The position numbers and the translations under genes are program-made. From NCBI GenBank assembly GCA_977862235.1, contig OZ374559.1, positions 2,356,001 to 2,420,000 on the forward strand: 64,000 nt of DNA. The letters run 5' to 3'. The stretch is from Dudresnaya verticillata (taxonomy: Eukaryota). Under the pieces are notes generated by a model that saw nothing but the letters and a program-made list of their open reading frames with translations, was not told where the DNA came from and did no database searches. This document shows positions 15 through 52,016 of this stretch, piece by piece. How positions within the stretch are numbered: the first letter of the stretch is position 1; the number at the start of each line of letters is the position of its first letter.

Positions 15-2004
15 CTAGATCCTATCCTCAACCCTCTCGCTGGCCGGTGCCGTTGCTACCGCCGTGGATGTTGGATCTTGAGACAGGGTTGCCCCAAGGG
101 CAGCTTCCGAAGCGGGAGGGAGAGACGCCATGGCCGCGTCACCCTCGCGACCCTCGCATCCCTCTGCAAGTGGGGCATTCCCCGTGTTTCCAGGAATGGT
201 GACGCCCTGGATGGCCAAGCCTTGCGCTATCTCCTCTTCTTGACGGGCTCGACGCCCAGCTGATCCAATGCCATGACGACCCCTGGGTCGAGTCTCTCCA
301 ATAGGAGATGCCGACGCGACTCCCCCGTGGCCGGTAACGATGGCTGTAGAAGCCCCTGGAGCCGGACTGGTCGTAGTGTTGACCCCCTCCTCTCGCGCGA
401 CAGGCGCTTCGCGTTCCTCCTTGGCTTGTTCGCCCAAACGGGGCAATCCCCGGAAATGTTCCGACATCCGATGGATGGGGCCAGGCACTGTTAGCCACGA
501 GGCTTCGTAGTCGACCATGGTCGCCTCGACCCAATCCGCCAGGGAATTCACCCTCAAGTTTTGGATGTTCCAGTGGGTTTGGAGGCGCACGGCCAAACCA
601 CGCTGACGAAAGACTTCGCGAATGACGGCATCGGCCTTGCTTCGCCCATGGATCACCGGCGGCGCGTAGGGGCCTAAAGGCTGACCATCGGTAAGCGCGT
701 CATACGCGGGCACCTCCGCGGGATTCTGCGGCTCGTGCCAGTTGTTACAAACCCACCCCGCGGTGAAATCGGACCGCAGGCGCATGCCTTCGTCCGCCTC
801 GATTGACTGAGCGTCCACTGGGACCGATTTGATCAGATATTCGGGAATGTCGGGAGCCCAGGCATCGGGGTCGAAATCGACCCAATCCCCGCGGTCAAAC
901 ACCGGCGTGATGGTGCCCGTGTCTGCGGGCAAGAACCGGTTTTGCTTCGACACTCGTTGCCAGACGATACGCTCGACGAAGAGTAGGAGCGAGTCCAGGT
1001 CGACTGCGTCATCGGCATTAGCCGTAAACTCCGACGAGCCGATCTCGCGAATATCATCGCGTATCTTCTGATTGATGAAGAACAGGGCCCTTCCGCGCCT
1101 CGTACATGAAGACCTGGGTGATGAGGACGATCCGTTCGTGCCGATAGATGAGCCATAGCAAACTACTACTCGAGGCCTGCATCAACTCCAAGCCGAGATA
1201 GGCCACAAGGGTCGGGACCCCCACGGGCATCGAGTACGAGACTTCGTAACAACTGTAGTCTGGAGGGATCTGCGGGTACTTGCTTGTGAACAATTCCGGC
1301 TTAATAGCTGAGACCTCCTGGCAGTGGAACGGGACCAGGCACCCGGTGCGATGCCTCTGGCGACGCTCAAAGCGAGCAGCTTCGTGGGGAAGAGCCGTCT
1401 GCGGCGTGTCCAACTGGTACTTATAGGCGGTGCGGTTGTTGGGAAGAGTGCTCCTGGTTGTGTTGTACGGGAAATTGTCCCTGCCTGCCCGGATGAAAGG
1501 GCGCGGATGGCCAACTGCCCTCATATCGTACTTCTCGGACACAAATATCTCGTCCAACACGTACTTCTCTTCGCCCAAGAAGCGGGCCATCTTCTCAATC
1601 CATGGAACCTCCCACCGATATCGGGCTCGTGCCAAGTCAAAGGGGAACGGCCCCGGCGTCGAAATACGCAGAGTCGTTAACGACAAATGGCTCACACGGG
1701 TCCTCAACAGGGTATTCCAAGCCTTGGCTTCCGCCCTCTTTCCGCCTAGGCGGCGCACTTCGTCGCGGTTCGCCCCAGCGCGGGGTCGCACATGATTTAG
1801 GTCAGTGCGCACTCGCCAATCGCGGCTAGACGCAATATCAACAGGGACACCTCCCGCGTCCACAGCGACCGGCGCTATGTTGTCCGGCGAGCCAGCTTGC
1901 CCATAGTGGAAGCTGGGGTTTACGGGCATGATGATGACGAGCCCGGGCTCCTGCTTGTGTAATACCACTTGAAAGGGGCCTGCCCAGAACTCTCCTCTCG
2001 CCAC
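15..2004 (-). pseudogene. Antisense accessory ORF of G0, frameshifted near 1060
   Basis: ORFs 1054-2004 and 15-953 join across a frameshift. W/Y-rich globular middle and low-complexity tail, in the same position as the G1/G3 antisense ORFs. Confidence 0.5.
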
Positions 2005-2076
2005 TTGGACGATCGCTCACGGAGCGGCCAGCACGCAGCGAGTTGCTGCGCTCACGCACCCCTCGGCGGGGTTGGC

Positions 2077-10837: not shown

Positions 10838-11601
10838 TGTGGTGCAACGGCAAGGGGGCCGCCGAAAGGAAGCAAATCGACGGGCCAACTGTACGATCGG
10901 CCCAACCAAACGAAGACAGCTGGCCAATGAAGTCGCGCCGTCGGCGCGCGGACGGCGGTGAGCGCGCGCAGGTATGATACGTGGCCACCAGCTGTACACG
11001 TGGCTCACACGTGGCCACCTACGACACTGAAGCGCACCACGTGTCCTGCTGTACACGTATGATCCGGTTCTCGGTCAGACGCAAATGGAAATTGGATTTG
11101 GCCGCAAGGTGAATCAAAGGGAAGACAGTGGAAAAATCAAGGGAAAATCTAACTCATTTGGCCAACCACTAACGAACAAGTACTTGGTTTAGTCTGGTAA
11201 GGGTACAACATTGGCCCGACGCCGGAACACAAGTAGATATTTATGGCCGACCTGAGTAACCTAGGCCACTAACTGTAGAATAGCTCTAGATTAGCTCAGA
11301 TGGCCGATTTTGAGCCTACTTAGCTGGCCACACACTACGGCTAAGCCGAAAAAGGTACGAAGCCGTCCCGCCAGAGGTTGGGAGTACAGTTTTGCAACCT
11401 TTTCCCAACTTGGCCATTCTCCGTCCTCATCACGGATTCTGGCCACGACTTCGTCTGCGCGCTCCCGCTCTACCACGCTTGCTACCGGCGCGCAGGTCCG
11501 TTCTACGTTCTGGCCAGTTTTGGTTGAATCCGACAGGTCTTTGTGGTCTTCTTGGGGTCTCGTTGGGCTGCCGTACGCGGCGGTGCCTCAGAGATACTAC
11601 A
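10838..11601 (+). repeat. G1 5' LTR
   Basis: Direct repeat of 23394-24157; 2 mismatches seen. Confidence 0.97.
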
Positions 11602-11602
11602 C

Positions 11603-11615
11603 TGGTCTCCCGACC
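11603..11615 (+). promoter_or_regulatory. Primer-binding site TGGTCTCCCGACC (tRNA-Tyr-like, inferred)
   Basis: TGG 1 nt after the LTR; identical in G3. The complement ..GGGAGACCA resembles the yeast tRNA-Tyr 3' end. Confidence 0.8.
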
Positions 11616-12078
11616 TAGAAGATCAGTTGTGATTCCGGCCGTATTGCTCCGTTAGAAGACTCGAGTAGCTGGCCGTAGTCGACGACGGCCAGTTTCTTCC
11701 TCGCTACTGTGGTGGCCAAACCCCGCAAGTTGCAGATTGCGGGTTAGTAACTACCCGGTTCCGCAATCTGATTGTCAGTTTACTTCAACCCGTTTCTCTG
11801 GCCACAGTCTAGGTCACAGGCCAGATACCCGTCGCTTGGTTCGTTCCCAGGTTGGCTACTTTGCACACTCGCTGGTTCGTTCCCAGCACAGGGAGCTTTG
11901 CACACGGCAGTGTCCGGCCCTTGGTATAGGGACTATTAGCTCGGAATCGTCCGTTCCCACCCCTGTGTTTTGCACACGACAGTGTGGTTCCCAGGAAGGC
12001 CACTTTGCACACGTCGGCCACGGGGTGGCCACGAATCGCTAGAAGTATCTGGCCAATCAGTCTCCGACGTACTTCGTC

Positions 12079-14418
12079 ATGTCTTCTTCTTCTTCACAGG
12101 CAGGCGGACAACCGCAGTCCTTACAAGACTCGGCTCCGCCTCCCTCCACGTTGGGCGCTCCCATAGGCCCACCCCCTGCTCCTGGCCTGTATCCACCGTT
12201 ATCGGGGCCAACACCAGCTCCTCCGGTCCCGTTATCGACTGGCCAGTTCATTCCTCCGACAGTTGGACGAGCAGGCTCGGCTTCCACAGCAGGCGCCGTC
12301 CGTAATGAGGCACTGCCGCGGACAGCCCCACCGGTCTCGCCATGGCGCACGCCACCGGCGGCCACAGCGCCACCGATGACTCCGCTGGCCGCTCCTGCCA
12401 ATCTTCGGCCGCCTCCGGTTGACGATGATTCCCAGCCAGAACATGATGTCTGGTTGGGCCGGCAAGAGTTCTACCAGTATAAGCGTCGTACGGCCGATTG
12501 GCAACAAGAGGTGAAGAACCAGTTTGGCGAGATGCAAGTCAAAATGTCCACCACGGCTCTGATTAGGGACCAGCAGCTTCGCCAGGAGATACACTCCGTC
12601 ATCCTATACGGTGCACTTACGGCCATAGCAGAACGTTATGATGAGCGTCTGGAAAAGGTGGAGAAGGCCGTTTTCTCTTCCGACGGGAAGGGGAAACTCC
12701 CCGCTCCTCCTGGCCAGACAAGGTCCGAGTCCGCTCGGATAACACCGGCCAACCTACCAGTCTTGGCACCGCAGGTGGGTGAACCGGTAGCAGCAGTGCA
12801 GAAGCAACTGGATAAGTTGCAAGATGAGATAACGGCCTTGTCGCATCCTGACAAGGCTCGGCCCAATATTCCTGAAGAAGGGGTACCACCGCAAGAGGGC
12901 AACACTCAGAACAGTGGTGCCGCCCCACGGCCTGCTTTAGTTGGACCTTCGGGGCCAGTTGATGCAGGGGAACCTTCCATGGGATACACTGGCCAGTTGG
13001 ATGAAACAGGTCTTCCTGTCGCGATGATGGGGCCAATGGAACCAGGTCTAGAGCCTCTCAAGACCCTCCAAGAACCCTTCCGGCGGGTGGTCGACTACCG
13101 AACCCACCGCCTGTTCGATACTCGGCCAAAGATGACTATGGAGGATGCGCGGCGCTTGTCCCGGATGACTCGCCAAATCCGGAACTTGTTCCCGCAGATG
13201 AACCCATTTGATGGCCGACGTCCGATCGAGCTCCTGTCCTTCCTCAAGGAGTTCAAGGATGCGTGTGATGGGACAAACGTCCATGAAGGGGCCGCTTTGC
13301 GTCTTCTGGACTTCTTTACGGCCGGTAATGCGAAGAGGTTCTATTCTGGCCGGATGTCCCGTGGTATAAGGTCAGTACACTCCATCTTTCCGATGAGTGG
13401 ATTTTCACAAATCAGCTGGCCACACTTAGTCCACGCTCTCATCAAGCGCTACTGTACCGAAGATGTTCTGGCCGCTGCGTTCGACAAAGTGGCCAGGAGC
13501 AAACACAAAGATACAGAGAACGAAGCGGAATTCGCTGACCGGTTGGGGGATGCGGCGCTGTCGTGCGCCCATGTCTTCTCGGAGAACACCCTGATCAACC
13601 ATTATGTGAGCGGTTTACCTTCGACCACTCGTTCGGCCGTAGCTGAGAAGCTTATGCAGATGCGGCAGGAGGAGAAGGACTTCTCGACGGTGCGCCGAAT
13701 CGCCATCGCCGAGGGGGAGACACACAGAGCCTACTTGGCTTCTGCACGTCCCAAAACAAGGTCGGCCAGTTCTCGAAGTGCGTTGGTCATCCCTACCCTT
13801 GCGGCCGAACCTGCTTGGCAGGCGGAGCCCGAGGATATAGCGGCCAACTATGATGATCCGTTTGACACCATACCGGTTATGGCCATTACTTCTGGCCAGA
13901 ATGGTGCTCAGCAAACACCGACAATGACGCCGACCACGCCGTCACCGGCAGGGTCGGTGTCCGGGGGTAATACCCCGGACCCACTCCGGAAACCTCTGAC
14001 GTTAACGTCGGATGAGCTGGCCAAAGTCGCTATTATGCTACGCAGTGACAAAACCAGTGCCCGTTGTTGGGGTTGTCGCGAATGGGGCCATGATTTGTAC
14101 ACTTGTGTGTACCTACCATTGGCCATCAGGAACTTGTTTGCCATACGTAACTTCCGCTTCCGAGATGAATTCGCTAGATGGCACCCCGAACAGTTTGCTG
14201 GCCGAGGTGGTCGAGGTTATCGCCCCGACCAAAGGAATGCCTCCTTTGGGGATGGAAAGGGACGCCCTCCCCCTCAGGGAATACTCCGACGGCCACAACA
14301 ATCATCTTCGAACCGTAGGAATCGGCAGGCCACGTTAGTCACTACGCAAGAACATCCATTGGATGAGGTGGTGGCCGACGTGGAGTCCGATAATTCTTCG
14401 TTGGCATCGGGAAACTAG
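12079..14418 (+). CDS. gag: G1 Gag (779 aa)
   Basis: Follows the PBS; FDGRRPIELLSFL capsid-like region; zinc knuckle CWGCREWGHDLYTC. Confidence 0.88.
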   Translation: MSSSSSQAGGQPQSLQDSAPPPSTLGAPIGPPPAPGLYPPLSGPTPAPPVPLSTGQFIPPTVGRAGSASTAGAVRNEALPRTAPPVSPWRTPPAATAPPMTPLAAPANLRPPPVDDDSQPEHDVWLGRQEFYQYKRRTADWQQEVKNQFGEMQVKMSTTALIRDQQLRQEIHSVILYGALTAIAERYDERLEKVEKAVFSSDGKGKLPAPPGQTRSESARITPANLPVLAPQVGEPVAAVQKQLDKLQDEITALSHPDKARPNIPEEGVPPQEGNTQNSGAAPRPALVGPSGPVDAGEPSMGYTGQLDETGLPVAMMGPMEPGLEPLKTLQEPFRRVVDYRTHRLFDTRPKMTMEDARRLSRMTRQIRNLFPQMNPFDGRRPIELLSFLKEFKDACDGTNVHEGAALRLLDFFTAGNAKRFYSGRMSRGIRSVHSIFPMSGFSQISWPHLVHALIKRYCTEDVLAAAFDKVARSKHKDTENEAEFADRLGDAALSCAHVFSENTLINHYVSGLPSTTRSAVAEKLMQMRQEEKDFSTVRRIAIAEGETHRAYLASARPKTRSASSRSALVIPTLAAEPAWQAEPEDIAANYDDPFDTIPVMAITSGQNGAQQTPTMTPTTPSPAGSVSGGNTPDPLRKPLTLTSDELAKVAIMLRSDKTSARCWGCREWGHDLYTCVYLPLAIRNLFAIRNFRFRDEFARWHPEQFAGRGGRGYRPDQRNASFGDGKGRPPPQGILRRPQQSSSNRRNRQATLVTTQEHPLDEVVADVESDNSSLASGN
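14409..14415 (+). promoter_or_regulatory. -1 ribosomal frameshift slippery site G GGA AAC
   Basis: Directly before the gag TAG; the protease ORF is open in the -1 frame. The same heptamer occurs at 40496-40502 in G3. Confidence 0.75.
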
Positions 14419-17400
14419 CCGGGCCGAGATCTTCGATCGTGATCCCGTTGCCCGTACACGTCCCAAAACCGGCTAGTCTCGTTTCCATTAAGTTCTTCCC
14501 TTTTAGTCACCTCCATTTTTCTTCTTTGTTAGCCATTGCATGGCGTTTGGCAACGCCAATCCAGGTTTGGTCAACCGATGATTTGACCTACCACTGCCCA
14601 TTTTCATCTAACGGTCTGGTGTGGTCACCGCCCTTGAGGTCTGGCCATACTACATCATCACCCACCCCCATAGACAATGGGGGTTCCTTGCCAAAGAGTG
14701 GCCGCAAATCATCGAACGACGAACAGAAAGAAGAATCCCAACTGGCCAGTGTTTCATCACAAGGTATGGTCTGCATCCTGGGTGGGGCCAACTATACCCT
14801 TTCGGGTTCATTTGGCCTCACAATGACTGCCTTGTTACCCGGGCCAATTGTCTTAGACACGTGCTCGGGTTGGAACATCATCCGGTTGGATGCGTTGCCT
14901 CCCAATTGGAAGGACAACGCACTTGAGTTGACGTCCCCGCCTCTTCTGGGGGACGCCAACCAACGGCCAATTCAGTTTCTTGGGGCCGTTTCCTTGGTCG
15001 TGCGCTTGGGCCGTCATTCATATCGAGTGCCGTTCCTTATCGCCGACCTTCGCTTTGCAGTACCCGTTTTGTTGGGTACGGCATTCTTGAACACGCACGT
15101 GGATAGCATCCAGTGCCGTGGTCAAACCGTGCACTTAGTGCGCCGAGATATCCTTCCGCTGCTTCCTGATAGCACTTCGATGGCTCTGGGGGCAGAGCCA
15201 ACCGCTGCGAAGGGGGCCCCGCCTCCGGGTAATTCCAATCCGGCCAGTACGGAGCGCAAGACACAGCGACACTACGCGGCCACTGTACGCTTGACGAAAG
15301 GTCTAACCATACGGGCAGGCCAACAGGCCACCGTGTCTGTTCGCAGTGATGGCCGAGGATTATGTGTGTTGGAGCCCAAACATTCTTTGAGCTTCCGGCA
15401 CCATACGCGGATGGCCAATGGAGTTGCCGAGGTTCGGCCGCAGAAACCATTCCAGGTAATGCTGGCCAACTGGGGAAGAAAGGATGTCTTACTGCCAAAG
15501 GGTACCGTGGTCGGCTATGCTGTCCGCCACCCCATGGCAATCTTGACGCCACACCGACGGAGTGTGGAGAATATGGCCAGTGTACTTGGGCTGACTCCAC
15601 TTGTGGATCAGGATAGTAGTCAAGTAGAAGTAGAAGAATCTGGCCAAGAGAGAGTTGAGCCTTCGAAACCAAAGGTACCTAGACAAGAGGCACAAGAATG
15701 GCAGGATAAGATCAAGCTTGATCATATCCCGGACAAGAAACAACGCGAAAGGATAATGGCCATTCTAGAGAAACAGTGCAATGTGGGACGGTTCCCTGGG
15801 ACAGATCATGACCACCGAGCATCGGATAGACTTGGAAGATGGAACCCGGCCAATAAGAGCGATGCCCTACCGACAAGGGCCAGCGTTACGCGCGATCGCA
15901 GAGGCCGATATTAAGAAGCAGTTGGAGGCCGGAGTGATAGAGCCATCGCACGGAGAATGGGCCTCGCCAATTTTGATGGTGCCGAAGAAGGATGGCACCC
16001 TCCGCTTCTGTGTCGACTATCGCCGGCTCAATGCGAAGACAGTTTGTGACGCATACCCGCTCCCGCGCATGGACGATTGTATAGACTCCCTTGGGGATGC
16101 GGCCGTGTTTTCAACCTTGGACTGCAACTCCGGATATTGGCAAATACCAGTGGCCGAAGAGGACAAGGATAAGACGGCCTTCACCTCACACCTGGGGACA
16201 TTCAGGTACAATCGAATGCCGTTTGGCTTGAAGAACGCACCGGCCACATTTCAGCGTGCGCTTGACATAGTTCTCTCTGGCGTCCGATGGCAGATCTGCC
16301 TCATCTACCTGGACGATGTCATTGTGTTCTCCAAGAATGTGGAGGATCATCTTGGCCATCTAGACGAGGTACTAACCTTGTTGAAGGCGACCGGCATTGC
16401 GTTGAAGTTGAAGAAGTGTTCCTTCTTTCAGGCCAAAGTAGATTATTTGGGCCATGTAGTGACCCCCGGAAAACTAAGTATGGCCATGCAGGGTACCAAG
16501 GCAATACAAGAGGCCGAGTTTCCAGGGTCCCTTACGGAACTCCGGTCTTTCTTGGGAGCTTGCAATGTCTACCGAAGGTTTGTGGCCAAATAATCCATGA
16601 TCGCGAGGCCACTTACGCGCATGTTGTGCAAGGATGCCGAGCCAGACTTCGAACGGCCAACAGAGGAACAACGTCATAGCTTCGAGAAGCTGAAGGCTGC
16701 TCTCGTCTCGCCGCCGATTCTGGCCTTACCTAGATACGGCCGGCCATATGTGATCGAGACTGATGCCAGCGCATACCAGATTGGATGCGTCCTGCTCCAA
16801 GAACAAGAGGATGAGTCGTACCATCCCGTAGGATATTGGTCTCGTTCCCTGACGTCGGCCGAGAAAAACTATTCGGCCACTGAGCGCGAGTGTTTGTCTG
16901 TGGTGTGGGCCATTACATCATTACGGCCATATGTTGAAGGTACCAAGTTCACAGTCCGTACGGACCATGATGCCCTCCGCCGGTTGATGTCGCTCACTGA
17001 TTCATCTGGCCGTCTTACAAGATGGAGATTACGTCTGGCCGAGTTCGACTTTGTGATTGAGTATAAACCGGGGCGTAAGAACCAAGTTCCCGATGCCTTG
17101 TCCCGCTTGGTGGCCCCGCAAGAGCGCGGAGATGCACGGCCAATAGATGATACTGTACCTGTATTGGACGGTACCCCCTCTATTCTCACGACCACGCGGT
17201 CCCGGAGACATCGAGAAATTAATAAGGCCGACAGGAGAGAACGGGACAATGATGTCGACGCATGGAAGGAGGAACATTTGATGGCCGATTATACAGACTA
17301 TGGCCGAGCGGAAGTCTTCAGTCGTGCACAAATGGAAGGGAAGACAGCAGAGACTCTTCCAACACCAGTAACACAGACTGAAATAATAGAGGTCCAGAAA

Positions 17401-18846
17401 AGCGACGACTTCTGCCAGACCATTCTCGCCACGAGAGCTGGACTGGCACGATCCAAGAAGCCCCTCTTCTTCGAAGGGATTGAGGGAGTCCTCTATAGAC
17501 GATGTCCGACAGACGGCCGAAAACAAATAGTGCTTCCAGCTTCGTTGCATGGCCGGATTCTTCGGTTGTGCCATCATGCCGTTCTGGCAGGTCACCCTGG
17601 CCAGAATAGAATGTATCGGACCCTTCGACGGAGATACTATTGGCCGCACATGGCCGCTGATTGCTTAGCAACAGTTCGGAACTGTGGCCATTGCGAGAAG
17701 AACCGGATTCATCGCCTACGACATACATCGAAGTTACAGCTGTTCCCGGCCAGTCAACCATTAGAGAGTGTGGCCATGGATCTTCTCGGGCCACTCCCCA
17801 GGACGAAGAAGGGGTTCGAACACATATTAGTCATCACGTGCTGCTTCTCGAAGTTGACTCAGGTGGTGCCTCTGACGAAGATAACCGCCAATAATGTGGC
17901 CACGGCGTTCTGCGTTCACTGGATTTTCAAGTATGGCGCACCAAAGACAGTTCTCACTGATAACGGTGGGCAGTTTGCGGCCAAGTTTTTCCAGGCCGTC
18001 TGCCGACAATTACAGGTGGCCAACATCTTCACAACCACATACCACCCACAAACAAACGGCCAGGTGGAAAGGTACAATCGAACACTGGTCGCAATGCTGA
18101 GAAGCTACGTGAATGAACATCAGACCGACTGGGATGAATACGCTGCGGCATTGACGTATGCTTATAATTGCCATATACATCGCTCGACTGGAACCACGCC
18201 GTTTGACTTGGTTCTCAGTCGGCCGCCGAGCCCATTCTCACTTGAGGCTACGTTAAACCGGCCAAAGCCAACAGGGACTGTGAAGGAAGCGTTTTTGCGC
18301 CGATTGTCAGAGGCCGTGGATAAAGCTTCGGCCAGTTTAACTCGCACACAAGCGCGCTACAAGAAGGACTTTGACCGCTCGGTGAGAACGGGGAATAAGA
18401 TGCTGGCCGCTGGAGGGTTTGTCTTCTTAGACAATCCAGAAAAGCAGCCAAAGAAACTAGAGCATCATGCCCAGGGGCCATACAAAATTATAAGCAATGA
18501 CGGCCGTACGTTCGTCATCGACAGAGCTGGCCAACTAGAGCGTGTTAGCTCGGACCGAGTAGTAGCCGCACCCAGGCCACAGGGGCAACCGATGGCTAAG
18601 GAGACAATGGCCAGCGCCGCATTGGGAACCCTTCCGGAAGGAGTCGCTGCGTCGGCCGAGGAGTATGTCATTGACAAGCTCACGGACATGCGTGAGGATT
18701 CAACTGGCCAGCGGTGGTTTCAGGTCAAGTGGTATGGGTATAATGGCCGAACGTGGGAACCCGAGGCTCTTTTGCCGGCCACGTTGGTGTCTCGCTTCTT
18801 CGCGCGCATGAAGCGCCGAGCTACGCCGGGCCAAAATAGTTCGTAA
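14415..18846 (+). pseudogene. pol: G1 Pol (PR-RT-RH-IN-chromodomain), with a frameshift ~15775 and TAA at 16591
   Basis: LDTCSG protease, YLDD, ETDASAY, HHCC zinc finger, TDNG..NGQVER integrase, VKWYGY..TWEP chromodomain. Confidence 0.95.
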
Positions 18847-19767
18847 GTTCAACATCGAAATGGCCAGGGAAGTCAAGCGAGAAGAGTCAGAGTCTGGCCA
18901 AAAACTTGTGAAGACGGAGATGCGTGGTGATTGTAGATGGGGGGGAGAGAAGGAGATGCTGGGTGACAAAATACCCCGGCTGGAACCCCACCACCAAAAA
19001 CACGACGGCGGTGTTTAGGGTTAACCCAGAATAATGTAAGCTGGCCAATCATGTGTGAGAAAGTTGTGGCCAGCAAATCTCCCGGTGCACGCCAAAATTC
19101 AGTGGGTGTAAATGGACGGTAGAAACTACCTCATCTTTTGCTACCTTTTTCGGGCAACTCTAATTCCCACATATCGTGCTCCCAAGCGGGGGGCTTGCGC
19201 AGAGTGAGGGGACAGGGGAAGCGACGATAACCCCTACCGACAACAAGAAGAAAATTGGCCCAGAGAAGAAGACATGGCCAGATGAGAAGCTTGAGGCTGA
19301 TGAGACGAAGACAATAGCTGGCCATTGCTCTTCCTACTGCGCCTTGAAGAAGGTAGCCTCACACCAAGACCATTCCACCACCACTCGCACTGGCCATTTT
19401 TGTGCTTTGACTTAACCACTAACTCCCTTGACCCCGTTTTTCCAGCTGTGCTCATGAGCATTGGCCAGGAGCAAGACTTACGACCCGAACTAACAAAGGT
19501 CCTACAGCCCCATTGACTAACAACTGGTCATGATAACACACAAAGTTTTTGAAGGTAACCAGTGCACTTTAACTCAAGACTGGCCGGACAGACTCATTAA
19601 CTCCCAAGAACAAGGGGAGCTGTCCAACCTTAAGACGCACTAACTTGGCCACCAACTTTTGATAACGCAAACACAAGACATAGGAAATCACAAGACTAAC
19701 AACAACTCATTGGCCAGCATAAGAGCACAAGACGAGCTGGCCAACTACTAACCCAAGACCTTGACAA

Positions 19768-22700
19768 CTAACGGCCATAGGGACTTGGCGAGCGAGGAGA
19801 ACCCGAAGCATAGGGCTCCCTGCTCCTCGACTGCGAAGGCGCACGAGGCGCTGTCGCGGGAACACGAGGGGCCGCCGCAGGAACGGTTGGCGGCGTCACA
19901 AAAGGCGAAGTGGCCGGCAGAGATAAGCTTCCAGGAACCTGGCCAGGCTGAGCAAAATTGGCCACAGGAGTCGGCGGAGCCGACACAGTCGGACGAGTTG
20001 GCTCTGGTTGATAATCGGCCGGTCGAGACGGCGCACGTGGATGACTGCTGATATCTCCAGCGTGAGATGGCGTGGGGGTTGTGGCCAGTGCCACTGAGAC
20101 CCCAGGATATGGCGGCATGCCCGGCGCAGGCGTAGGCAAGGAAGACAGAGGAAACTGAGGCATCTGGCCAAAGACGGAGGGCGCATAAGCTGCGCGCAAA
20201 CTGGCCAGCTGATGAAATCCACGATTGCGCTCCATGTCAAGTAAGGCCTGTTGATTGTGCGTCTCATCGCACCAGCGATCGCGCTGTCTCTTCCACTCAA
20301 GACCCTGCTCGTTAGATCTGGCCAACGTCTCCTTTGTGGCCTGCAACTCGGCCTCGACTTGGTCTTTCTACCTTCTAACATTGGCCAGCCGCTCTTGGCC
20401 CCGCCTGATCACTTCTTCCATTTCATCAACATGACGACGAACGCGGTTGAGCTCTTCGGACTGGCCACGCTTCATATCGCTGAGACGGCCAAGGCTCTGA
20501 TCCAGCTGCCGCAAGACGTTGGCCAAAGACATTTGGTTAACATGGCCACGTACAGAGAGTTCGGCCACCACATGCGGATGAGGATGTAAGATAGCGGGCC
20601 GCACGATGGAAGCGTCGTTGGCCACATCAACTCCAAAGCTGCTACCATGGCGAAAAGTCACTTGCTTGTTCCAGTCGAAACCGCAATACTTCTCATCATG
20701 GCCCGCTCGACGTTGGAACAAATGGTCGCGTTGTAGCACTGTATCGGCCAGCTTCTCGTACAACGATACAACATCTGGCCAATATACGTGGTTGAACTGA
20801 TGCTGGTGCTCCGGGCTGACGGGAAGATAAGTAAGGCCTTTCACCACTTCAATCCGCCGAGCAATGGCCTGCGGAGTCATCCACCACATTCTCTTCGACG
20901 CTTGCGCTTCGTAGCGGAAGAAGATGCTGGCCATTATGTGCAACTCTATGACAGCGGTCTCTTGGAAGCACTCAACCCAAGAGGGGTCGAGCGCATGACG
21001 ACGATACTGGCCAACAAAATAATAAGCCAGTGGGCTGAGCAGACAAGCTTCACCCTTCGATGGCCACTCCTTCCAAAGAAAAGCGGGGACGCTAGGGAAG
21101 TATTCAACTGATGGCCAAAACCCTTCCTGGCCACGAGTGTTGCCATGGTAGACATAGCTACCACCCGTGCGATGGGCCAGTCAATCTCCCGGTGCTATGA
21201 TGCGACGAAGGTCGGTACTGGCCATTTTCGCGTTTCGCACGGTTGTCTGCTCCCAGCGCTCAAGCATCCACGCGTGAGGGAAGGCGTAATACCAGGTGGA
21301 AGTGTGAGGATACACGCTAGACTTGCCCTTGAACATCAGCCAAGCCCCGTGGACGAACATCACGTCCTGCGCGCACAACAAAAAGGCACGATCGCACTCA
21401 ATCTCCAGAGGGATCCAATAGAGATGGCCATTATCGTGCGACTCGCGATACTGATGCCACACCTCGTTGAGAGGGCAATGGCTTTCCCGCACGCGAATCA
21501 TGTCCAGCTTGTCACTATTGGCCACCAACTCGGTATAAGGAATATCTACCCGAGGAAGCTTTGGCCAGATGGAAGTCCCAGGAAGTCGTTCGTCCAAAAC
21601 TAACTCAGGGCCATCATGATCTTCTAGCCCCGGTGGGACGTCAGCACGGAAAGGTACAGCAGCACGAGTGTGCGAAGCTGGTTCACAGTCCCGATGCATC
21701 GGAGCAGAAGGGCCAGCACTTGAACTTGGAATACCCTGGCCAGTCTTCGTGATATCTAAGGTTTCTTCGCGCGGAGTAACTTCCTTAGCGCGGGGATCTT
21801 CAACCTGGCCAGATGACTTGGGCTGCACGCCTACAGAAGGCGTAGAAGAAGTCTGGCCAGTTTTAAGCTCATCGGCGTCGGGGAGCAAGGCCACAAAGCG
21901 ACGACGATCGCCGTCTGACATAAGATTGGCCGGCGGGATTGGTGTAGAAGCATCGACGTCAATAACTTCCTCACGAGATGACTGGCCAGCTTCCTTAGGC
22001 GGCAGCCGCTGCTTCTTCGAGGGAGGTCCCTGAATAACGGGCTTACCGATGTTTAACTTGGCCAGTTCACGCGAACGACTCGCAGCCGTCGGCATGAAAG
22101 GCGAAGGCGCCGAGCGTAGTCGCGGCGTGGATTTCCTCGAAGCGCTTGGAGTGGCCGAACGCGACGATTTGCGTGGCACAGGAATGTTGGCCAAAGCTTC
22201 TGCAGCCTTCTGCCCCAACTTGTCTCCTTTCTTCTGTTCTGGCCCAACCTTCTCAACACTTCCAGGTAACTCCTGCTTGCTGGCCAATACTTCTTCTCGA
22301 GCGGGCACAAATACCATGGCCGAGTCGACGACCTCGGGTTGAACCGCAGCTACTTCTTCAGCTGCTGCTGTAGTAGCTTTAGTAACCAAAGGACGATAGA
22401 TGGCAATAACAGCCTTCTCAATGGCACTGGCCAATGGAGGTGGAGTAGGATTAATGGCCGTTGGCACCGAAGTGCTTGCGGCCGGCACTGACTTCTTCGC
22501 TTCGAGACGCTTCACCTCGGCCTGTACCAACCCTTTCTCAGGCGCTTCTGCTGTCTTCTGGCCAGTTTTCTTCGTCTCCTGGGCTAGCGGGCCGACGGTA
22601 GAAGATGCTGTCGGCTTACCCTTTTTGAGTTGACCTGTTGCCACCGCTGCCTCTTCTGATGAAGATGATGCAACGATGGTCACACTGCACACCACCTTGG

Positions 22701-23160
22701 CCTTCTGCGCATCCGCAAGTTTCTTCTTCAAACTGGCCAGTTGTTGTTCCTCAGCTTCGCGTCTCTTCTGACTGGCCTCTATCTCCTTCATCAACTTGTC
22801 GGTGCCAACGTCGGGCGTACCTTGCACCATGGCCGGAGTTGCGGAAGCAGCAACACTCTTCTTCTGGCCAGTTGTGATGGGCTTCTCCACCGCGGCCACC
22901 TTCGCGGCAACCAACGGATCATTAGTTGCACGGCTTGGAGTCTTGGGCGCCGGGGCGGAAGATGCCCTGGGCGCCTTCATCGCACGCGGCCTCGAACTCT
23001 GGCCGGTCTTCTTGGTGGTCGCCTTCGCTTTGGCCGTCACAACTTCTTCATCGCTTGACGGCGGCGTAGAAGATGAGCTTGAAGAAATGGTCGGCCGTAC
23101 AGTCTTCTTCTTGACCGATGCAGTGCGGCGCGGACGCGCTTTCGTAGGGCCACCCGCCAT
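19768..23160 (-). pseudogene. G1 antisense accessory ORF, ~1130 codons, with two in-frame stops (21181, 20368)
   Basis: ORFs 21181-23160, 20368-20943 and 19768-20346 are one frame when TGA and TAG are read through (checked by hand). Layout: K/S/A/P-rich N-terminus, W/Y-rich domain, coiled coil, P-rich tail. Confidence 0.8.
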
Positions 23161-23393
23161 CAAGAGCGAACTGGCCAGACACGCAAGTCGGGAGTAAGGG
23201 AAGGCGCGCGCAAGTTGGCAAGAAGCGCGGGCGTGTGCACGATATGTTGGGAAGTGTTGGTAAGGGGAAGCGCGATGCGGGTTGAAATGGGGATGGCCGG
23301 ATGCAGGGAGAGGGGTGTCGGCGCGGATCACGCGCGCTGATATGGCCAGATGAAACCCTCGCGGCCAGGAGTCCGCGCTTGCGAAGGGGGCTC

Positions 23394-24157
23394 TGTGGTG
23401 CAACGGCAAGGGGGCCGCCGAAAGGAAGCAAATCGACGGGCCAACTGTACGATCGGCCCAACCAAACGAAGACAGCTGGCCAATGAAGTCGCGCCGTCGG
23501 CGCGCGGACGGCGGTGAGCGCGCGCAGGTATGATACGTGGCCACCAGCTGTACACGTGGCTCACACGTGGCCACCTACGACACTGAAGCGCACCACGTGT
23601 CCTGCTGTACACGTATGATCCGGTTCTCGGTCAGACGCAAATGGAAATTGGATTTGGCCGCAAGGTGAATCAAAGGGAAGACAGTGGAAAAATCAAGGGA
23701 AAATCTAACTCATTTGGCCAACCACTAACGAACAAGTACTTGGTTTAGTCTGGTAAGGGTACAACATTGGCCCGACGCCGGAACACAAGTAGATATTTAT
23801 GGCCGACCTGAGTAACCTCGGCCACTAACTGTAGAATAGCTCTAGATTAGCTCAGATGGCCGATTTTGAGCCTACTTAGCTGGCCACACACTACGGCTAA
23901 GCCGAAAAAGGTACGAAGCCGTCCCGCCAGAGGTTGGGAGTACAGTTTTGCAACCTTTTCCCAACTTGGCCATTCTCCGTCCTCATCACGGATTCTGGCC
24001 ACGACTTCGTCTGCGCGCTCCCGCTCTACCACGCTTGCTACCGGCGCGCAGGTCCGTTCTACTTTCTGGCCAGTTTTGGTTGAATCCGACAGGTCTTTGT
24101 GGTCTTCTTGGGGTCTCGTTGGGCTGCCGTACGCGGCGGTGCCTCAGAGATACTACA
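23394..24157 (+). repeat. G1 3' LTR (PPT GAAGGGGG just upstream)
   Basis: Direct repeat of 10838-11601. Confidence 0.97.
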
Positions 24158-33230: not shown

Positions 33231-33268
33231 GTGCCCCAGAGCTCCTGTACAGGAGTAACAGTGAGCTT

Positions 33269-37356: not shown

Positions 37357-37361
37357 GTCCT

Positions 37362-38147
37362 TGTAGTATAGCTGTCAGCACACTATCAGCAGCGGCTGTA
37401 AGGTATGCTGGCAGCGCCGCACTGTAATGGTGCACACGATGACGCCCGCTGGCGAGTCGTGGTTGGGCAGCGTGCCCTTAGTTTTTTCGTTGAATTAGTA
37501 GCGGTCGACCGCATTGCTGCCGGCAGCGGCCGCGCGCCGTGCCGCACACGGCGCGCCCCTGTTATCACACCTGTGACGCTCTCCGGCATCGAGCCGTTGA
37601 GAGGGCCGCTGCCCGTTACGCCCCGCGCGCGCCCACGGGTAACCGTTACCCGGACGTATCGACACGTGTATGGGCGCGCGCTCGCACACCTCCCGCATTG
37701 GTGTTGTGGGGCGCACCTACTGTAGAAGTAGTCGTAGTGCACATAGTGTAGGGTATTTAAGACCGTCGGCCATCGACGGCTCAGTAAACCGGGCAAGCAA
37801 AAGCTCGCGCTGAAGCTTGCCCCCAGCCTTTTCGGGTTCGATCCCTTTGCCTTACGCCAGCGGGCGGTTTCCCTTTTTCCCCTTGCCTCGCTAGGCTTTC
37901 CCCTTTCCTTTTCCTTTCCGTCGGCTTCGTGCCGCCCTTCGACAGGGACGCTAGGATCCGGCCGCTGCCTACCCGCGTACGCTACGCCCCGTGCACGCTC
38001 CAGCATCGACACCGTTGATCCGCACCTGCGAGGCGCACGCGGCCGACACCGCTCTACCAACCCCAACAGCTACCCATCGACGGGTCTGTGTGGCGGCTTC
38101 GGACCAGCAAGTATCAGACGTCGGATCGACCCGACGTCTATACTACA
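37362..38147 (+). repeat. G3 5' LTR
   Basis: Direct repeat of 49843-50628; ~21 mismatches by eye. Confidence 0.96.
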
Positions 38148-38148
38148 C

Positions 38149-38161
38149 TGGTCTCCCGACC
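38149..38161 (+). promoter_or_regulatory. G3 primer-binding site
   Basis: TGGTCTCCCGACC, identical to G1. Confidence 0.8.
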
Positions 38162-38214
38162 TAGAAGTCGTCGAGACTCAAGTACTTCTCGCATCGACGC
38201 GATCGCAGTAAAGG

Positions 38215-40502
38215 ATGTCGAGGCCTCCTGACCCGGCCGCTGCCGCATCGGCTGCTGCCGGAAAAGTTGAGGACGCGACGCGTCGCACCTCAATACTGAG
38301 TACCATCGACGTCTCAGGTACTCCTCTACACGATGTGAGGCTCGAGCGGAGGGCCGCGCTGCAAAAGGCCCTCGCCGGGAGTCTGGTCTCGGTGGCCGAC
38401 CTCCAGTTGATGTATGAGGAGACCATGGACTCGCTAGCCGAGGTGTACGACCACCTTACAGCTTCGATAGCTGAGGCGAAGGCCGACGGCCAGCAAGACC
38501 TGGACACGCTTCGACGCGGTCCTTTGGCGTCCATCGAGGACGGAATAACCCGGTCACAGGGGCTCCTCGATGAGCTACGCCGCCGCGTTGAGTTGATAGA
38601 GCGCGCGCCGACGCGGCAACGCCAGCGGGCTACGGGCCCGTCGTCAGCGCAGCGCTCTCCTCCGCGACCGCAGTCACCAGCGGGTGCAGTTCAAGAACTG
38701 GCCGCTGCCATACTTGCCGAGCAACGAGCTCGGCATCTCTTTCCTTCACCACCGCCATCTCCACCGAGGAGTGCGGCGGGGTCGCACCATCCGAGTGGGG
38801 ACCCCAATCCGTTCTACGGGGTCGACCCCAGGTTGCTCCAACAAGCCCTCGACGGGCAAAACACAAAGGGGAGACCGACCCCCCAACAGCACGAGGGCCC
38901 CGTCTCTGCCTATTGGCATTGGGGCCCACTCATGGCAGGCATCGAGCCTTTAACCACGTTGGTGCCAGAGTTCGCTAAGGCGATCGACTACCGTTCGTAC
39001 CGTCTCGATGACGGCGATCAGCGGGACAATCAACAGCAGGTATGCAGCGGCAATACTGCGAAGATTGTCAGCCGCATGAAGGCCCTGATGCCCCGACTCG
39101 ACCGGTTCGACGGCAAGGAGCCTATTCGCCTGCTTGGTGTGCTTCGACAGCTACGCCAAGCATTCAATGGCGTTGGACTATCTGAAGGCACAGCGGCGCG
39201 TGTGGTGTCCTGGTTCCTCGATTGAACCGCGTCGCAGGTGTACTCGAGTCACCTGTTCTCTGGGGTGCGCACGACGCAGCGCGGCACCCCACCCTGCTGG
39301 GCCTCGGTGGTCAATACCCTCTTCGAGAGGTTCGTCACGGACGACGTCATCGCAGACGCCCATGACCGGCTGACCACCGCCAAGCAGAGGGACGCCGAGT
39401 CCGAGCTTGAGTTCGCTACTCGCCTCGAAGGGTATGCGGACGCCTGCGCTGGCGTGTAATCCGATGAGAACTTGACGCATCAGTTCCTTCGGGGCCTGCT
39501 GCCCACGACAAGACCCGCAGTGGCGGAGAAGGTCAGGCAGCTGCCTATGGTCGAACAGACCAATTTTAGTACCGTTCGTCGGATTGCCCATAGCGAGGGC
39601 ACAACCTACCGCGCCCGTTCGGCAAAGGCAGCGCAGCCTACGAACACCTCAGGGCGCGGCAGGTCAGGTGGCAGCTCGGCAAGCGGCCGTACACTGCTCA
39701 TCGAGGGCCCACCAAGCTATCCCAGTGGGGACGTTGCTATCGACAGCACAATGCTGGTGGACCCTGACGCCGACGGGTTCGAACCCGTGATGGTCGCGCC
39801 CGCGCTATCGACAGCCGGGTCGACCGAGGCCGTCGAGACCCTCGACATTACAGGACGCATCGACGCGGTCCTACCCAAGCGCATACCACCGCTCACTCCA
39901 ACGCAGGAGGCGATGGCACGCGCAGTCATCCCTGATCGACAGGGATGGTACATCTGCTGGTTCTACCGCGAGGTCGGGCACATCATGTATTCGTGCCCGT
40001 ACCTCACGAAGGAACAGCAGACGTACTGCGCGTATGCGAACTGCAACCATCGAATGGAAACGCAGCCGCATTCGCGCAATATGCTCCAACAGCTCATCGA
40101 CGAGCGCGCGCCAGCGGGCGAAAGGACAAGGAACCCCGCACGGCGCTACGACGCGCCGCGGGTGGGGACCGACGCTTCGACGCGAGAGGTCCCCCGCAGC
40201 GCATGGGCGCACCAAGGTACCGCGGAGAGCCGCAGGGGTACCGCGGGGATCGTCGAGACCCACACCGCGAGTACCGCCAAGGCGACGCACCGCGGTTCCT
40301 GCTGCGCGATAAGCGGGTCGGCTTCGACGAGCCCGCTGGCCGTCAACCTCAGGCATCGACGCCTCCGAGGGCTGACCCGCGTCGCGAACTGCTCCGAGAA
40401 GTTATGACGGTGCAGGAGCACACAGGCCTCACCGCCGACGAGTGGCTTCCGCAAGTGCTCGACGCGCGGCACAAGGGAGAGACAGCCAGCGGGCAGGGAA
40501 AC
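38215..40502 (+). pseudogene. gag: G3 Gag with stops and a frameshift
   Basis: GIEPLTTL..IDYRSYRL..FDGKEPI..FSTVRRIA..CWFYREVGHIMYSC aligns with G1 Gag; ends at GGGAAAC. Confidence 0.85.
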
Positions 40503-40653
40503 GATTCCCCTCTCCTTTTGACACGCCTCCGCGATCGACGCGAGGCGCCTCAGGGGTTACGAAACACCCAATCGGAATCGAGCAAGAAAGTTCGGATTCC
40601 GAGGATAATTCTGACCGGGTCGATCCGGAAAAAGAATAAAGGCGGCGCCGCTC

Positions 40654-43600
40654 GTGCGGTCGCGCGCACCGTCTTGTCCAACACCAGACCCACCATCCCT
40701 TCCACCTTCGACGGCGTTGGGGGCAGCGAGCCTCCGCGTCGGGCGCAGCGGCGCTTCGAAGGACACGAGCGACGTCCCGGTCGACGGGACGTCGTGGGCG
40801 ACGCGTACCAAACCACCCTGGCCGCCGCGGCGTCGACGCAAGCGACAGGCCAGGCGGAAAGGGCGCAGCTCCCCAACGGCGGGACAGGCGGTACCCGACG
40901 CTCGAAGCGAGGGTACCGGGGCTCCATGCAACGACGCAGAGCCGTCCACCACCCCCGATGGGTACGTGTGCCTCCTGTCCTCCGATATTTACCGAGTGTC
41001 CGGGTCCCTCGGTGCGGACCCGCGGGTTATGATACCCCACACCATCGCGGTGGACACCGGCTCCGGGTACAACCTCATCGCTCGAGGTGCCCTGCCCGCA
41101 GGCTGGGAGGAAAACGCGTCAGAGATCGACTCCACGCCACGCCTGGCAGGCGCCGACAAGACTCTGCTGAGGCTGTCCGGCGTCGTCCACCTCTCGATGA
41201 GGTTAGGGAACACGACTTTCCGCGTGCCTGTCATCGTCGCCGACACGCTCGCGGTCGACGTACTGATAGGCACGCAGTTTATCAACGCGCACGTGCGCGG
41301 AATCGACGTCGAGTCGAGAAGGCTGACGCTGAGGAAAGGAGGCTCGGTGCCCATCCTCAGCCGCAGGACCCCTAGCGAGGGGACCGGTCCGGCAACGCAG
41401 CCGAAGAACCCATCGAAGGGTTTGTCGAAGAAGCACCAGCGGGAGCTCCTCGACTGGGATCACGATACCCACACCATACGCCTCGCTAGGCAGGTGGTTG
41501 TCCCAACCTACTCGCAGCGGCTCGTCTCGGTAACGTCGGGGGCTAGTGGGTTAGTCCACACGGAGCCCAAGCCCTCGTTGCAGTTCCGCCACGGCGTGAG
41601 ACTGACCAACGGGGTGCACGACATCGAGTCGGGGCGACCCTTCGGGGTTATCTTGGGCAACTGGACGGACAAAGCCCGGACCCTACCGAAGGGTACCGTG
41701 GTTGGCTATGCGGTCCGCAACCCAGTCGCCCTAATAACCCCGGACCGCGACGTCGCGGAAGAATTCGGGAGGGTGATGAATATCACCACCCTTCCCCACA
41801 AAGGGCAGCGGCCCAGGGGTAAGGGGAGCAACGACCCCCCAGTCACGCCGTCGATGGCAAGGGGCCCCGAGCCCACAAAGCTCCAAGGAGCAGCGACCGC
41901 AGCGGCGGAGAAAAGAGAGTCCGTCGAGGACTGGGAGTCGCAGGTGGACCTTTCGTCTATCGAAGACAAGGTCACCCGCGAAGAAGTCCTCACCATTCTT
42001 CGGAAGCATCAGTCCATGTGGGACGGGAGGCTCGGCACGATTGCCGCTACGCAACACCACATCGACGTGGAACCCGGCACGCGGCCGATTCGCTCAATGC
42101 CCTATCGACAGGGCCCCGCTATGCGGAAGCTCGTACAGAACGAGGTCGAGACCATGCTGCGTGCAGGGGTAATCGAACCCGCCACGTCGGAGTGGGCATC
42201 GCCAGTCGTTCTGGCGCCCAAGAAGGATGGCACGCTCAGGTTTTGCGTGGACTATCGACGTCTTAACACCAAAACCCTGAGCGATGCGTACCCACTCCCA
42301 CGCACGGATGACTGTATCGACAGTCTTGGGGACGCTGCCATTTTCTCCACGCTGGATTGTAACGCGGGGTACTGGCAAATCCCTATCGCAGCGGCTGACA
42401 GGGATAAGACCACGTTCACGACGTTCCTAGGGACGTTCCGCTACCTGCGGATGCCCTTCGGACTGAAGAACGCCCCCGAGACTTTCCAGCGTGCACTGGA
42501 CATCATACTCAGCGGAGTTAGATGGCAGTGTTGTTTGATCTATCTCGATGATGTGATCATATTCTCGCGGTCGATCGCGGAGCACGTCGGTCACCTAGAC
42601 CGCGTGCTGACTCTGCTTCGCAAGGGCGGCGTGTCCCTGAAGCTGAAGAAGTGCCACTTCTTCCAGTCCCGCGTGGACTACCTCGGTCACGTGATCGAGC
42701 CGGGGAAACTACGCATGGCCAAGACAAGCATCGACGCGTTCCGCCATGCGCAGTTCCCGACCTCCCTAACGAAGGTGAGTTCGTTCCTCGGGGCGTGTAA
42801 CGTTTACCGCCGCTTCGTCAGGAACTTCGCGAAGATCGCTCGTCCGCTGACAGATATGACCCGCAAGGATGCGGATGTGGATTTCGATAATCCAAGCGCA
42901 GCGGCGCTAGAGGCATTCGAGACGCTGCGAGCGACACTCTTATCGCCTCCTATCCTACGGCTCCCTCGCAAGGGCAAGCCGTACGTCCTCGAAACGGACG
43001 CATCGGCGTACCAACTCGGATGCGCCCTGCTCCAGGAGCAAGAGGAAGGCCAGTTACACCCCCTTGGGTACTGGTCTTACTCACTAAGCTCAGCGGAGCG
43101 AAACTACTCGGCCACGGAGCGCGAGTGCTTTGCAGTGTGTGGTCGATCACAACCCTGCGTCCCTATATCGAAGGGACCCGGTTCACAGTACGAACCGACC
43201 ATGACGCCTTGCGCTGGCTCATGTCTTTGACCGATTCGTCCGGTCGCCTCACCCGCTGGCGGTTACGACTCGCGGAATTCGACTTCCAGATTGAGTACCG
43301 CCCGGGTAGGGTCCACCAGGTGCCGGACGCGCTGTCCCGCCTGGTGAGGCCTCGACGGCAGCAAGAGGAGGTTGACGACGATGTCCCTACCTATGACCCC
43401 CCGGCGGTCGACCGCCAGAAGGAGGGTGCCTCGAGTACCGAACCCAAGGCACCGTCGGTCTTGCTGACCACGCGGTCCCAAGCCAACGCGTCGACGCGGA
43501 AGGCGCCGGATCGACCAGCTGCAGTGGGCGGCACTGGCAGCGAAGCCAAGGAGCCCTCGGACAGCGACGAGCCACCGGGGCTTGCCGACGACGAAGCCTG

Positions 43601-45194
43601 GGACGACTGCGACGACGTCGACCTTTTCGACCTTGGCCGCATCGACGCGAGCCAAGAGCCGACGGACCTCACCCGGGTCGAACCGGTGAAGCTCCCTTCA
43701 CCAATAACCGTCGAGGAATTGGTGGATGCGCAGCGGCGCGATTCTTTTTGCCAAACAGTGTTGGCACGGCAGTCCCGTCGACGGGATAGCCACTTCTTCG
43801 AGGACGAGGACGGGCTCTTGTGCCGGCGTCACCCCGTCATCTCTTCGTTGGAGCAAATAGTGGTGCCCGAAGCGCTACAGCCGCGGCTTCTCACGCTCGC
43901 GCACCACTCCCTCCTGGCTGGCCACCCTGGCCAGAACAGGATGTTCTACACGCTCCGCGAGAGCTACTACTGGCCACACATTTCAGCGGACATAGCCATG
44001 ACAGTTCGGAACTGTCGGCACTGTGCCAGGAACCGCATACGCTTGCGGAGGTCCCTTCATCGGTTGAAGTTGTTCCCGGCCACGAGGCCGCTCGAGTCGC
44101 TCGCGATCGATATCCTAGGGCCGCTGCCCAAGACGAAGTCAGGAAAGCGATTCCTGCTCGTCATGACGGATCGATTCACGAAGCTGACTCAAGTAGCGCC
44201 GCTGCGCACCATCACAGCGTACCACGTCGCAGTGGCGTTCTGTGAGAGGTGGATCTTCCACCATGGACCACCGAGGTCTCTGTTGTCCGACAACGGGAAG
44301 CAATTCACCTCTAAGTTCTTTCAGGCAGTGTGCCGCTACCTCGGACTGAACAACGTGTTCACGTCCGCCTACCACCCGCGGGCGAACGGTCAGGTTGAGC
44401 GCTACAACCGGACCGTCATGGCCATGTTGAGGAATTACATCAACGATCACCAGGACGACTGGGATCGATACGCAGCGGCGTTGACGTATTCCTACAACTA
44501 CCATGTCCATCGCACGACGCGGACGACACCCTTCAGCCTCGTGCTGTCCCGGCCGCCGCCGGAGTTCACTAAGTTTCATAAGGCAGCGGCCAGACCGAAA
44601 CCTAGTGAGGACGTGCGCGCGGACTTCCTCAAGCGGCTCGACGCCGCCTTCGCAAGCGCATCGAGCGCTCTCGACAAAACGCAGCGGCGTGACAAGAAAG
44701 ACTTCGACAAGCGTGTCAGAAAAGTCAACTCCCGCATTCGAGCGGGAGACTACGTCTTCATTGACGCGAGCGACGGGGTTAAGAAACCCAAGAAGCTCCA
44801 GAGCCCAGCGATAGGGCCCTACCGCGTGCTGCTTAACGACAAGCGCACGCTGTTTATCGACAGAGGCGGCTTGGTCGAACGCATCGCAGCGGACCGCGCC
44901 GTCTACTGTCCCCCGCCGCTGCGGGAGGATACTGCGCAGCGCAGCGCCTACTTACCCACCACTGAGGAACTCGCGTCCAAAGCCGTCGACGGCCCGCGGT
45001 TCGTGGTGGATAAGGGCCTTGACCACGGTACAGCCGACGATGGCACGCTCTTGTTCAAGGTGAAGTGGACCGGCTATCGCAAGCCGACGTGGGAGCCACG
45101 TTCCCATCTCCCCGAGGAGATGGTGAGCCACTATTTCGCATCGCAGCGGCGGCGAAACACCAATCGGCTCGAAGCCGTTCGCTCCTCCTCATAA
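40654..45194 (+). pseudogene. pol: G3 Pol (PR-RT-RH-IN-chromodomain), frameshift ~43135
   Basis: VDTGSG, YLDD, ETDASAY, GHPG..C..C, SDNG, NGQVER, VKWTGY..TWEP. Confidence 0.95.
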
Positions 45195-49500: not shown

Positions 49501-49524
49501 GGCAGACGAGCGCGTCTTGGCCAT
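46518..49524 (-). pseudogene. G3 antisense accessory ORF, frameshifted
   Basis: MAKTRSS start at 49524; A/P-rich N-terminus, W/Y-rich domain (47630-48700), P/Q-rich tail (46518-47027); same position as in G1. Confidence 0.7.
47062..47256. repeat. 98-bp tandem duplication
   Basis: CTGTCCCGCTCGGTGCGGTAGCGAAGG... starts at 47062 and at 47160. Confidence 0.9.
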
Positions 49525-49842
49525 ACCGCACGTCGACGTGGGCACTCGCGTCGAGCGAAGGGGGCGGAGAAGGCGTAGCACGATACACACACACGACAGC
49601 GGTCACTGGTATGCTGAAGCGTGTGGGCGAAGGGGGGGTCGTGGAGAGCGATACCCGCAACCTCCCCAGCGCTGACTCCGCGTTGATCCTTATATGCGCA
49701 GCGGCGCAGACGGGCGAGCACGCGCATACACCGTCGACGGGCGCGCGTGCCAATCACTGTCAACGGCCACTCGGGATTGCCATCGTGGCCCCGGGAAACC
49801 TCAACGGCCGTGAGCGGGGCGCTCACGCTTGAGGGGGGGCCG

Positions 49843-50628: not shown

Positions 50629-50633
50629 GTCCT

Positions 50634-52012: not shown

Positions 52013-52016
52013 GTAC

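Follow-up and report, generated by a model that had tools for sequence, protein, structure and literature searches.

A maintained and fast-drifting antisense protein behind the integrase of chromodomain-bearing Ty3/gypsy retrotransposons

Background

Is the long minus-strand open reading frame (ORF) between pol and the 3' LTR of a retrotransposon a gene, and what could its product do for the element? A window of 64 kb, the whole stretch of DNA analysed here, raises this question; its retrotransposons form a nest. ORFs in antisense at the 3' end have been described in Grande, RIRE2, Retand, PvRetro13 and Boty (PMC7264820). TRP28 is carried by 97 % of the Retand clusters (PMC11963269), and the share of elements with an eORF-3'R was given as 86 % for Retand, 60 % for Ogre and 47 % for Athila (PMC6317226). 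What antisense ORFs do in LTR retrotransposons is still debated (PMC7264820, PMC11963269). The initial annotation of the window regarded them as not known from chromodomain-bearing elements, which was too strong, as 3' reverse extra ORFs occur in 8 % of the Tekay chromoviruses (PMC6317226, Additional file 5). The arrangement is already known; new here are a protein family and family-specific motifs.

Results and discussion

G1 is a complete Ty3/gypsy LTR element, its plus strand encoding gag, protease and RT-RH-IN-Chromo, with the chromodomain at the end of pol (Table 1). Two differences in 764 bp separate its LTRs, which are flanked by a 5 bp target duplication, ATTAG. G3 has the same layout, with 21 differences in 786 bp between its LTRs (37362-38147 and 49843-50628). 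Both elements have paired TG..CA LTRs, a target duplication and the PR-RT-RH-IN order of Ty3/gypsy. The Pfam Chromo matches at the integrase C-terminus, with E-values of 3e-4 (G1) and 2e-4 (G3), lie under the curated cut-off. Judged by their sequences, G1 and G3 are chromodomain-bearing Ty3 elements. Chromovirus is a phylogenetic label, of which the chromodomain is the part seen here; other Ty3 lineages of algae gained chromodomains independently, and those of brown algae are unrelated to chromoviruses (PMC12477816). The polypurine tract of G1 lies on the plus strand at the LTR end of the leader. The putative primer-binding site of G1 is identical in G3 (38148-38166) though the LTRs are unrelated; related metagenome loci have a different one. 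G1 combines near-identical LTRs with a stop and an apparent frameshift in pol and two stops in the antisense ORF, coding defects that probably go back to an already defective parent copy or to errors in the assembly.

In the interrupted element G2, a gap of 187 bp between pol and LTR leaves no room for an antisense ORF. The pol of G0 lies beyond the window edge, and no G0 LTR was identified in the window. Three DIRS-like elements (7399-10314, 53919-56435 and 58781-62728), all with a reverse transcriptase and one with a tyrosine-recombinase match, lie amid a mosaic of repeated terminal segments. An inverted repeat pair of 494 bp, 91 % identical (25105-25597 and 31786-32263), flanks about 7 kb, possibly a DNA transposon, and 107 bp are tandemly duplicated at 26407-26622.

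Table 1 Features of the window (strand relative to the sequence as presented;. = none assigned)
Feature	Position	Strand	Remarks
G1 5' LTR	10838..11601	+	764 bp, TG...CA; preceded by the target duplication (5 bp)
G1 putative primer-binding site	11602..11620	+	first 19 nt common to G3
G1 gag-like ORF	12043..14418	+	stop to stop; CCHC-like motif; no Pfam match
G1 protease-region ORF	14394..15914	+	other frame, overlaps the gag end
G1 RT-RNase H-integrase	15769..18846	+	GPY motif, C-terminal chromodomain; in-frame stop 16591-16593
G1 non-coding spacer	18847..19767	.	between converging 3' ends; 11 TGGCCA sites
G1 antisense accessory ORF	19768..23160	-	1130 codons, two internal stops
Pro/Ser-rich C-terminal tail	19771..20235	-	part of the G1 antisense ORF
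Putative coiled-coil segment	20236..20553	-	from sequence reading; weak G1-G3 match, E 0.003
Conserved globular domain	20542..21624	-	matched by the HMM at 20860-21567; prediction mostly helical; fold searches without a match
N-terminal low-complexity A/K/S/P/T region	21625..23160	-	basic; NLS-like runs, not above shuffles in G1
G1 leader between 3' LTR and ATG	23161..23393	-	pyrimidine-rich
G1 3' LTR	23394..24157	+	followed by the target duplication
YGGCCR, element-wide	10838..24157	.	176/265 window sites; TGGCCA 92/111; median TGGCCA spacing 97 bp
G3 Ty3 with chromodomain	37362..50628	+	nested in G2; sense-biased CAGCGGC/CATCGAC motif
G3 antisense ORF	46518..49524	-	frameshifted; domain core 47912-48205
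G0 antisense ORF	15..2016	-	two frames (frameshift); domain match 1087-1398
G2 Ty3	32637-52014	-	interrupted by G3; 596-bp LTRs; chromodomain-like end

The large antisense ORF that the initial annotation had placed between integrase and 3' LTR was recovered in G1, from an ATG at 23160 to a stop at 19768, together with matching minus-strand ORFs in G3 and G0. Its 1130 codons are interrupted by two in-frame stops, at codons 660 (21181-21183) and 931 (20368-20370), against 24-48 stops in each of the five other frames of the region; none of 1000 Markov simulations of this frame had two stops or fewer, the minimum being 11. In G1, a low-complexity N-terminal half is followed by a globular region of about 350 aa, a putative coiled coil and a Pro/Ser tail. 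Weak coiled-coil Pfam matches were present in the relatives P0123 and P0151, and the putative coiled-coil region of G3 contains a 98-bp tandem duplication (47062-47255). All three copies in the window are broken, by stops in G1 and by frameshifts in G3 and G0. The ORF had been described as starting just inside the 3' LTR boundary; the first ATG lies outside the LTR, on its internal side, at a distance of 234 nt in G1 and 319 nt in G3. An internal promoter appears as likely as an LTR promoter to drive antisense transcription because TATA-like boxes were found between LTR and ATG in G3 and 138 nt upstream of the ATG in the homologous locus L001. The maize Grande gene23 has an internal promoter (PMC7264820).

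The domain was looked for in metagenome contigs behind integrase genes; the best 80 of 563 confirmed integrase matches were kept, from 22 of the 64 parts of the collection. A minus-strand domain was detected within 4 kb behind the integrase in 54 of the 80 loci, in 50 of the 58 with at least 1.5 kb of downstream sequence and in 42 of the 48 with at least 2.2 kb, counts that are not independent, as 35 clustered loci represent 7 families and some of the loci had served to train the HMM. All 7 sampled families have kept it. Among the 48 loci, the domain was never found on the plus strand, so an Env-like ORF, which would lie in sense behind pol, was rejected. The six misses comprise three loci that look rearranged or deleted, one that diverges after about 590 bp and two without related downstream DNA. 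A chromodomain-like end, assigned with a local HMM, was present in 73 of the 80 loci and in 52 of the 54 domain-bearing ones. Many of these loci have a long minus-strand ORF behind the integrase, with open ORFs of 588-848 codons. A long antisense ORF in the interval from pol to the 3' LTR of most copies corresponds to the aORF-3R type, and we consider it very likely that it is a functional protein-coding gene. Among the 120 best Pol relatives listed, a species name was attached to just 7, all from Chondrus crispus, so a red alga is the likely host of G1-type elements.

A phmmer search of 1.84 billion representatives found three relatives of the antisense protein, with 24-26 % identity and a best E-value of 7.5e-10; P0133 and P0151 were added from cluster members and one more search, L001 and L002 from a scan of a genome collection. 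The homologous regions L001:714-2768 and L002:79-1194 are on short contigs within a bacterial genome bin and are likely eukaryotic contamination. The faint similarity between G1, G3 and G0 that the initial annotation had noticed is real at the profile level only. In pairwise comparison, the score of G1 and G3 was equalled by 30 of 1000 shuffles, and G0 gave nothing. A core-only HMM from 9 loci matched G0 (4e-10) and G3 (1.8e-4), with no match to G1. A second HMM was built from 16 loci and 4 database proteins, with all window sequences excluded. Its E-values were 1.3e-12 for G0, 2.1e-8 for G1 and 0.021 for G3, as against 0.85 for the best of the reversed decoys. Aligned with hhalign to the profile of the loci, the G1 group gave 96 % (E 3e-9) and G0 97 %; G3 was weak with 37 % (E 3.5e-4), and 1.5 % against the G1 group alone. 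The short motifs picked out in the initial annotation fall into the conserved core. By profile comparison G1, G0 and, weakly, G3 share one domain of about 300 aa, at 9-31 % identity across families. Its description as W/Y-rich holds for G1 (W 4.3 %, Y 4.9 %) and is clear only there, the G0 pieces having about 2 % W.

No match to PF04195, PF10536 or PF03078 was obtained at E<=0.5 when 44 domain members were scanned singly, and PF10536 was not found in the genome containing L001. No report of this family was found in the literature covered, which is incomplete and includes the accessible parts of PMC2774666, PMC2864245, PMC4093653 and PMC8365987.

A compact fold of about 300 aa was predicted by AlphaFold2, with a pLDDT of 78 and a pTM of 0.81 for the domain of locus L042 (alignment of 44 sequences); the G1 domain, with a similar order of helices, reached 63 and 0.68. 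Searches of Pfam, PHROG, PDB and BFVD yielded no match to the domain, by which a new fold is not proven. No match to VANC or PMD appeared, and the VANC structure PDB 9LNK was not among the fold matches listed, although the searched copy may not include this entry. Conservation falls mainly on W, P, G and Y. The domain alignment has no invariant basic or catalytic residue, and an enzyme is less likely because an invariant catalytic set is missing. In the predicted structure, a variable surface encloses a hydrophobic core that is conserved.

The dN/dS check that the initial annotation had suggested was made on copies of relatives. Within-family pairs with at least 55 % identity and dS >0.05, which are non-independent and do not include G1, G3 or G0, were evaluated by NG86. 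All 49 domain pairs had a dN/dS below 0.5 (0.09-0.49, median 0.27), and third positions changed most. Thus the domain is under purifying selection in the relatives. For 41 of these pairs the integrase had a median of 0.16. The domain also had the longer tree, 18.5 vs 6.8 for integrase (2.7x), and both trees recovered the same family clusters; between G1 and G3, identity is 52 % in integrase and 15 % in the domain. The initial annotation was right that the antisense ORF diverges faster, but host conflict does not follow: faster divergence is no evidence of it because every pair stayed below 0.5 and raised dN/dS is general among accessory TE proteins (PMC13547354). No positive selection was seen in the 49 within-family pairs. 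This shows a maintained, fast-drifting protein rather than an arms race.

The second new feature is a motif painted over the elements. Of the TGGCCA sites, 92 lie in G1 and 19 in the remaining 50.7 kb of the window. YGGCCR, a palindromic motif without strong strand bias, exceeds the expectation from synonymous shuffles in gag (28 vs 7.9), pol (41 vs 12.3) and the antisense ORF (48 vs 14.8), with none of 500 shuffles per ORF reaching the observed count. G3 has different words, CAGCGGC and CATCGAC, and holds 93 of the 128 plus-strand CRKCGRC sites of the window. In each of the three ORFs tested, none of 1000 shuffles reached the CAGCGG count of G3, and CAGCGGC is biased towards the genomic-RNA strand, with 31 vs 0 sites in the 3' region and 13 vs 5 in gag-pol. 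The top k-mers of pol predicted the own 3' region better than all 36 others in both G1 and G3; self beat all others in 11 of 37 elements with 5-mers and in 7 of 37 with 6-mers, G1 and G3 included. G2 had an excess of GTAC in pol (23 vs 12.5, 0/500 shuffles); this element is without an antisense ORF, therefore motif painting needs no such gene. GTAC reaches about twice the expected number in pol and protease of G2, and about 9 per kb overall. No clear motif was found in the 3.3 kb of G0, and neither the G1 nor the G3 motif was in excess in two DIRS reverse transcriptase ORFs. The signal was weak in the metagenome loci, and the strongest painting by far was that of the two ORF-bearing elements G1 and G3. 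Candidate family motifs in the 3 kb behind integrase were TGATCA in L006 (6 vs 0.3 expected) and CGGCAA/AGCGCG in L048; these are not top words of the respective pol genes.

As a tentative preference, with chances somewhat short of even, we propose by analogy to VANC that the antisense protein may act in trans in the nucleus, as a regulator that recognises the family of its own element and counters host silencing. The gene would be transcribed from the 3' end of the element, by the LTR or an internal promoter. The protein would enter the nucleus, oligomerise via the coiled coil and bind the motif present at high density in its own family, locally relieving silencing at motif-bearing copies. 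The fast divergence of the protein would track changes of the motif, and the broken copies of the window (G1, G3 and G0) would rely on intact relatives. Fixed antisense position, cross-family homology, purifying selection and the family-specific motifs of G1 and G3 are in favour of such a regulator, and the antisense ORF products described so far are either nuclear or have a predicted DNA-binding capacity (PMC7264820, PMC11963269). Against it stand a motif in the ORF-less G2, no clear one in G0 and weak signals in the metagenome loci, as well as the lack of an invariant basic residue, a net charge varying from +29 to -36 across the antisense ORFs, the absence of NLS-like motifs in 4 of 15 sequences checked, the spread of the motifs over coding DNA, unlike those of VANC, and the lack of positive selection.

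Possible, if on the unlikely side, is an adaptor in the replication cycle, comparable to Rev or Vpr, that binds RNA, Gag or the integration complex of its own element and acts in export, packaging or nuclear import. The motifs, if relevant, would be read on RNA, which agrees with the strand bias in G3 but not with the palindromic G1 motif. The order of low-complexity, globular and coiled-coil parts and the vertical inheritance of the domain with the element fit this role, which was proposed for plant antisense ORFs (PMC7264820). However, the gene is missing from G2 and from most plant chromovirus clades and is therefore dispensable for the core cycle.

Distinctly unlikely is an antagonist of host factors, e.g., of the small-RNA or chromatin silencing machinery, acting by protein contact without sequence recognition. 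The motifs would have arisen separately, for instance through a host factor, through Gag or integrase of the element, or through a mutational process. A motif excess without the ORF in G2, most loci having the ORF and little motif signal, and the variable surface around the hydrophobic core speak for contacts of this kind, and many host contacts are predicted for accessory TE proteins (PMC13547354); the strong painting in precisely two ORF-bearing elements and the lack of positive selection speak against them. A role mainly as antisense RNA, or a captured relic, with the protein as incidental product in either case, is highly improbable: the window copies are all broken and antisense RNA roles are known in other retrotransposons (PMC7264820), but selection at the codon level largely refutes it, and the long open ORFs, the confidently predicted fold and the homology across divergent families also stand against it.

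The antisense gene resembles those of plant Retand/Tat, Ogre and Athila elements (Grande gene23, RIRE2, Retand TRP28, PvRetro13 ORF2) in position, orientation and lineage-wide retention, and some of the plant ORFs likewise combine a globular domain with an SMC-like coiled coil (PMC7264820, PMC11963269). Retand, Ogre and Athila, however, belong to land plants, fall outside the chromoviruses and have PF04195, PF10536 or PF03078 (PMC6317226), whereas the algal-type elements carry chromodomains and had no match to these families. With the retroviral HBZ of HTLV-1 and APH-2 of HTLV-2 they share an antisense gene at the 3' end, in the viruses for a nuclear regulator (PMC7264820, PMC11963269). The viral genes have an LTR-driven promoter, and the likeness is one of arrangement, with no homology implied. 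Antisense extra genes in Ty3 elements are also known from the chromodomain-bearing Tekay (eORF-3'R) and, as brtn, from Boty of Botrytis, a chromovirus. In Tekay they are a minor, heterogeneous feature, whereas here all 7 sampled families retain one homologous domain.

For the proposed regulator, a close parallel is VANC of the VANDAL elements, Mutator-type transposons of Arabidopsis. VANC binds dense family-specific motifs, often in one orientation, in non-coding tandem repeats, with targets that differ between families (PMC5735166); it is related to MAIN/PMD and predicted to oligomerise by a coiled coil (PMC13547354). A fast-changing accessory protein encoded by the transposable element is common to both. 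Dense family-specific short motifs recur here in G1 and G3, against no clear motif in G0, weak signals in the other loci and a motif of its own in the ORF-less G2. VANDALs are, however, DNA transposons with motifs in non-coding repeats, whereas the elements here are LTR retrotransposons with motifs dispersed through coding DNA, and binding is at the candidate level. The full version of the proposal, a self-recognition system of red-algal chromodomain-bearing Ty3 elements in which a protein of new fold reads a 6-7 bp word painted family-wide, coding DNA included, and which converged on VANDAL/VANC in anti-silencing, is speculative and unlikely to hold in all its parts.

Conclusions

Element-wide, family-specific motif painting within gag-pol is unusual in itself, whatever reads it. 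The case offers a protein family that spans the clade, its structure predicted with confidence, and, for two families, a named candidate target motif, so that the function of an antisense ORF becomes directly testable. If protein and motif are paired, sequence-specific anti-silencing would have a second, independent example, from which new DNA-binding modules could be drawn.
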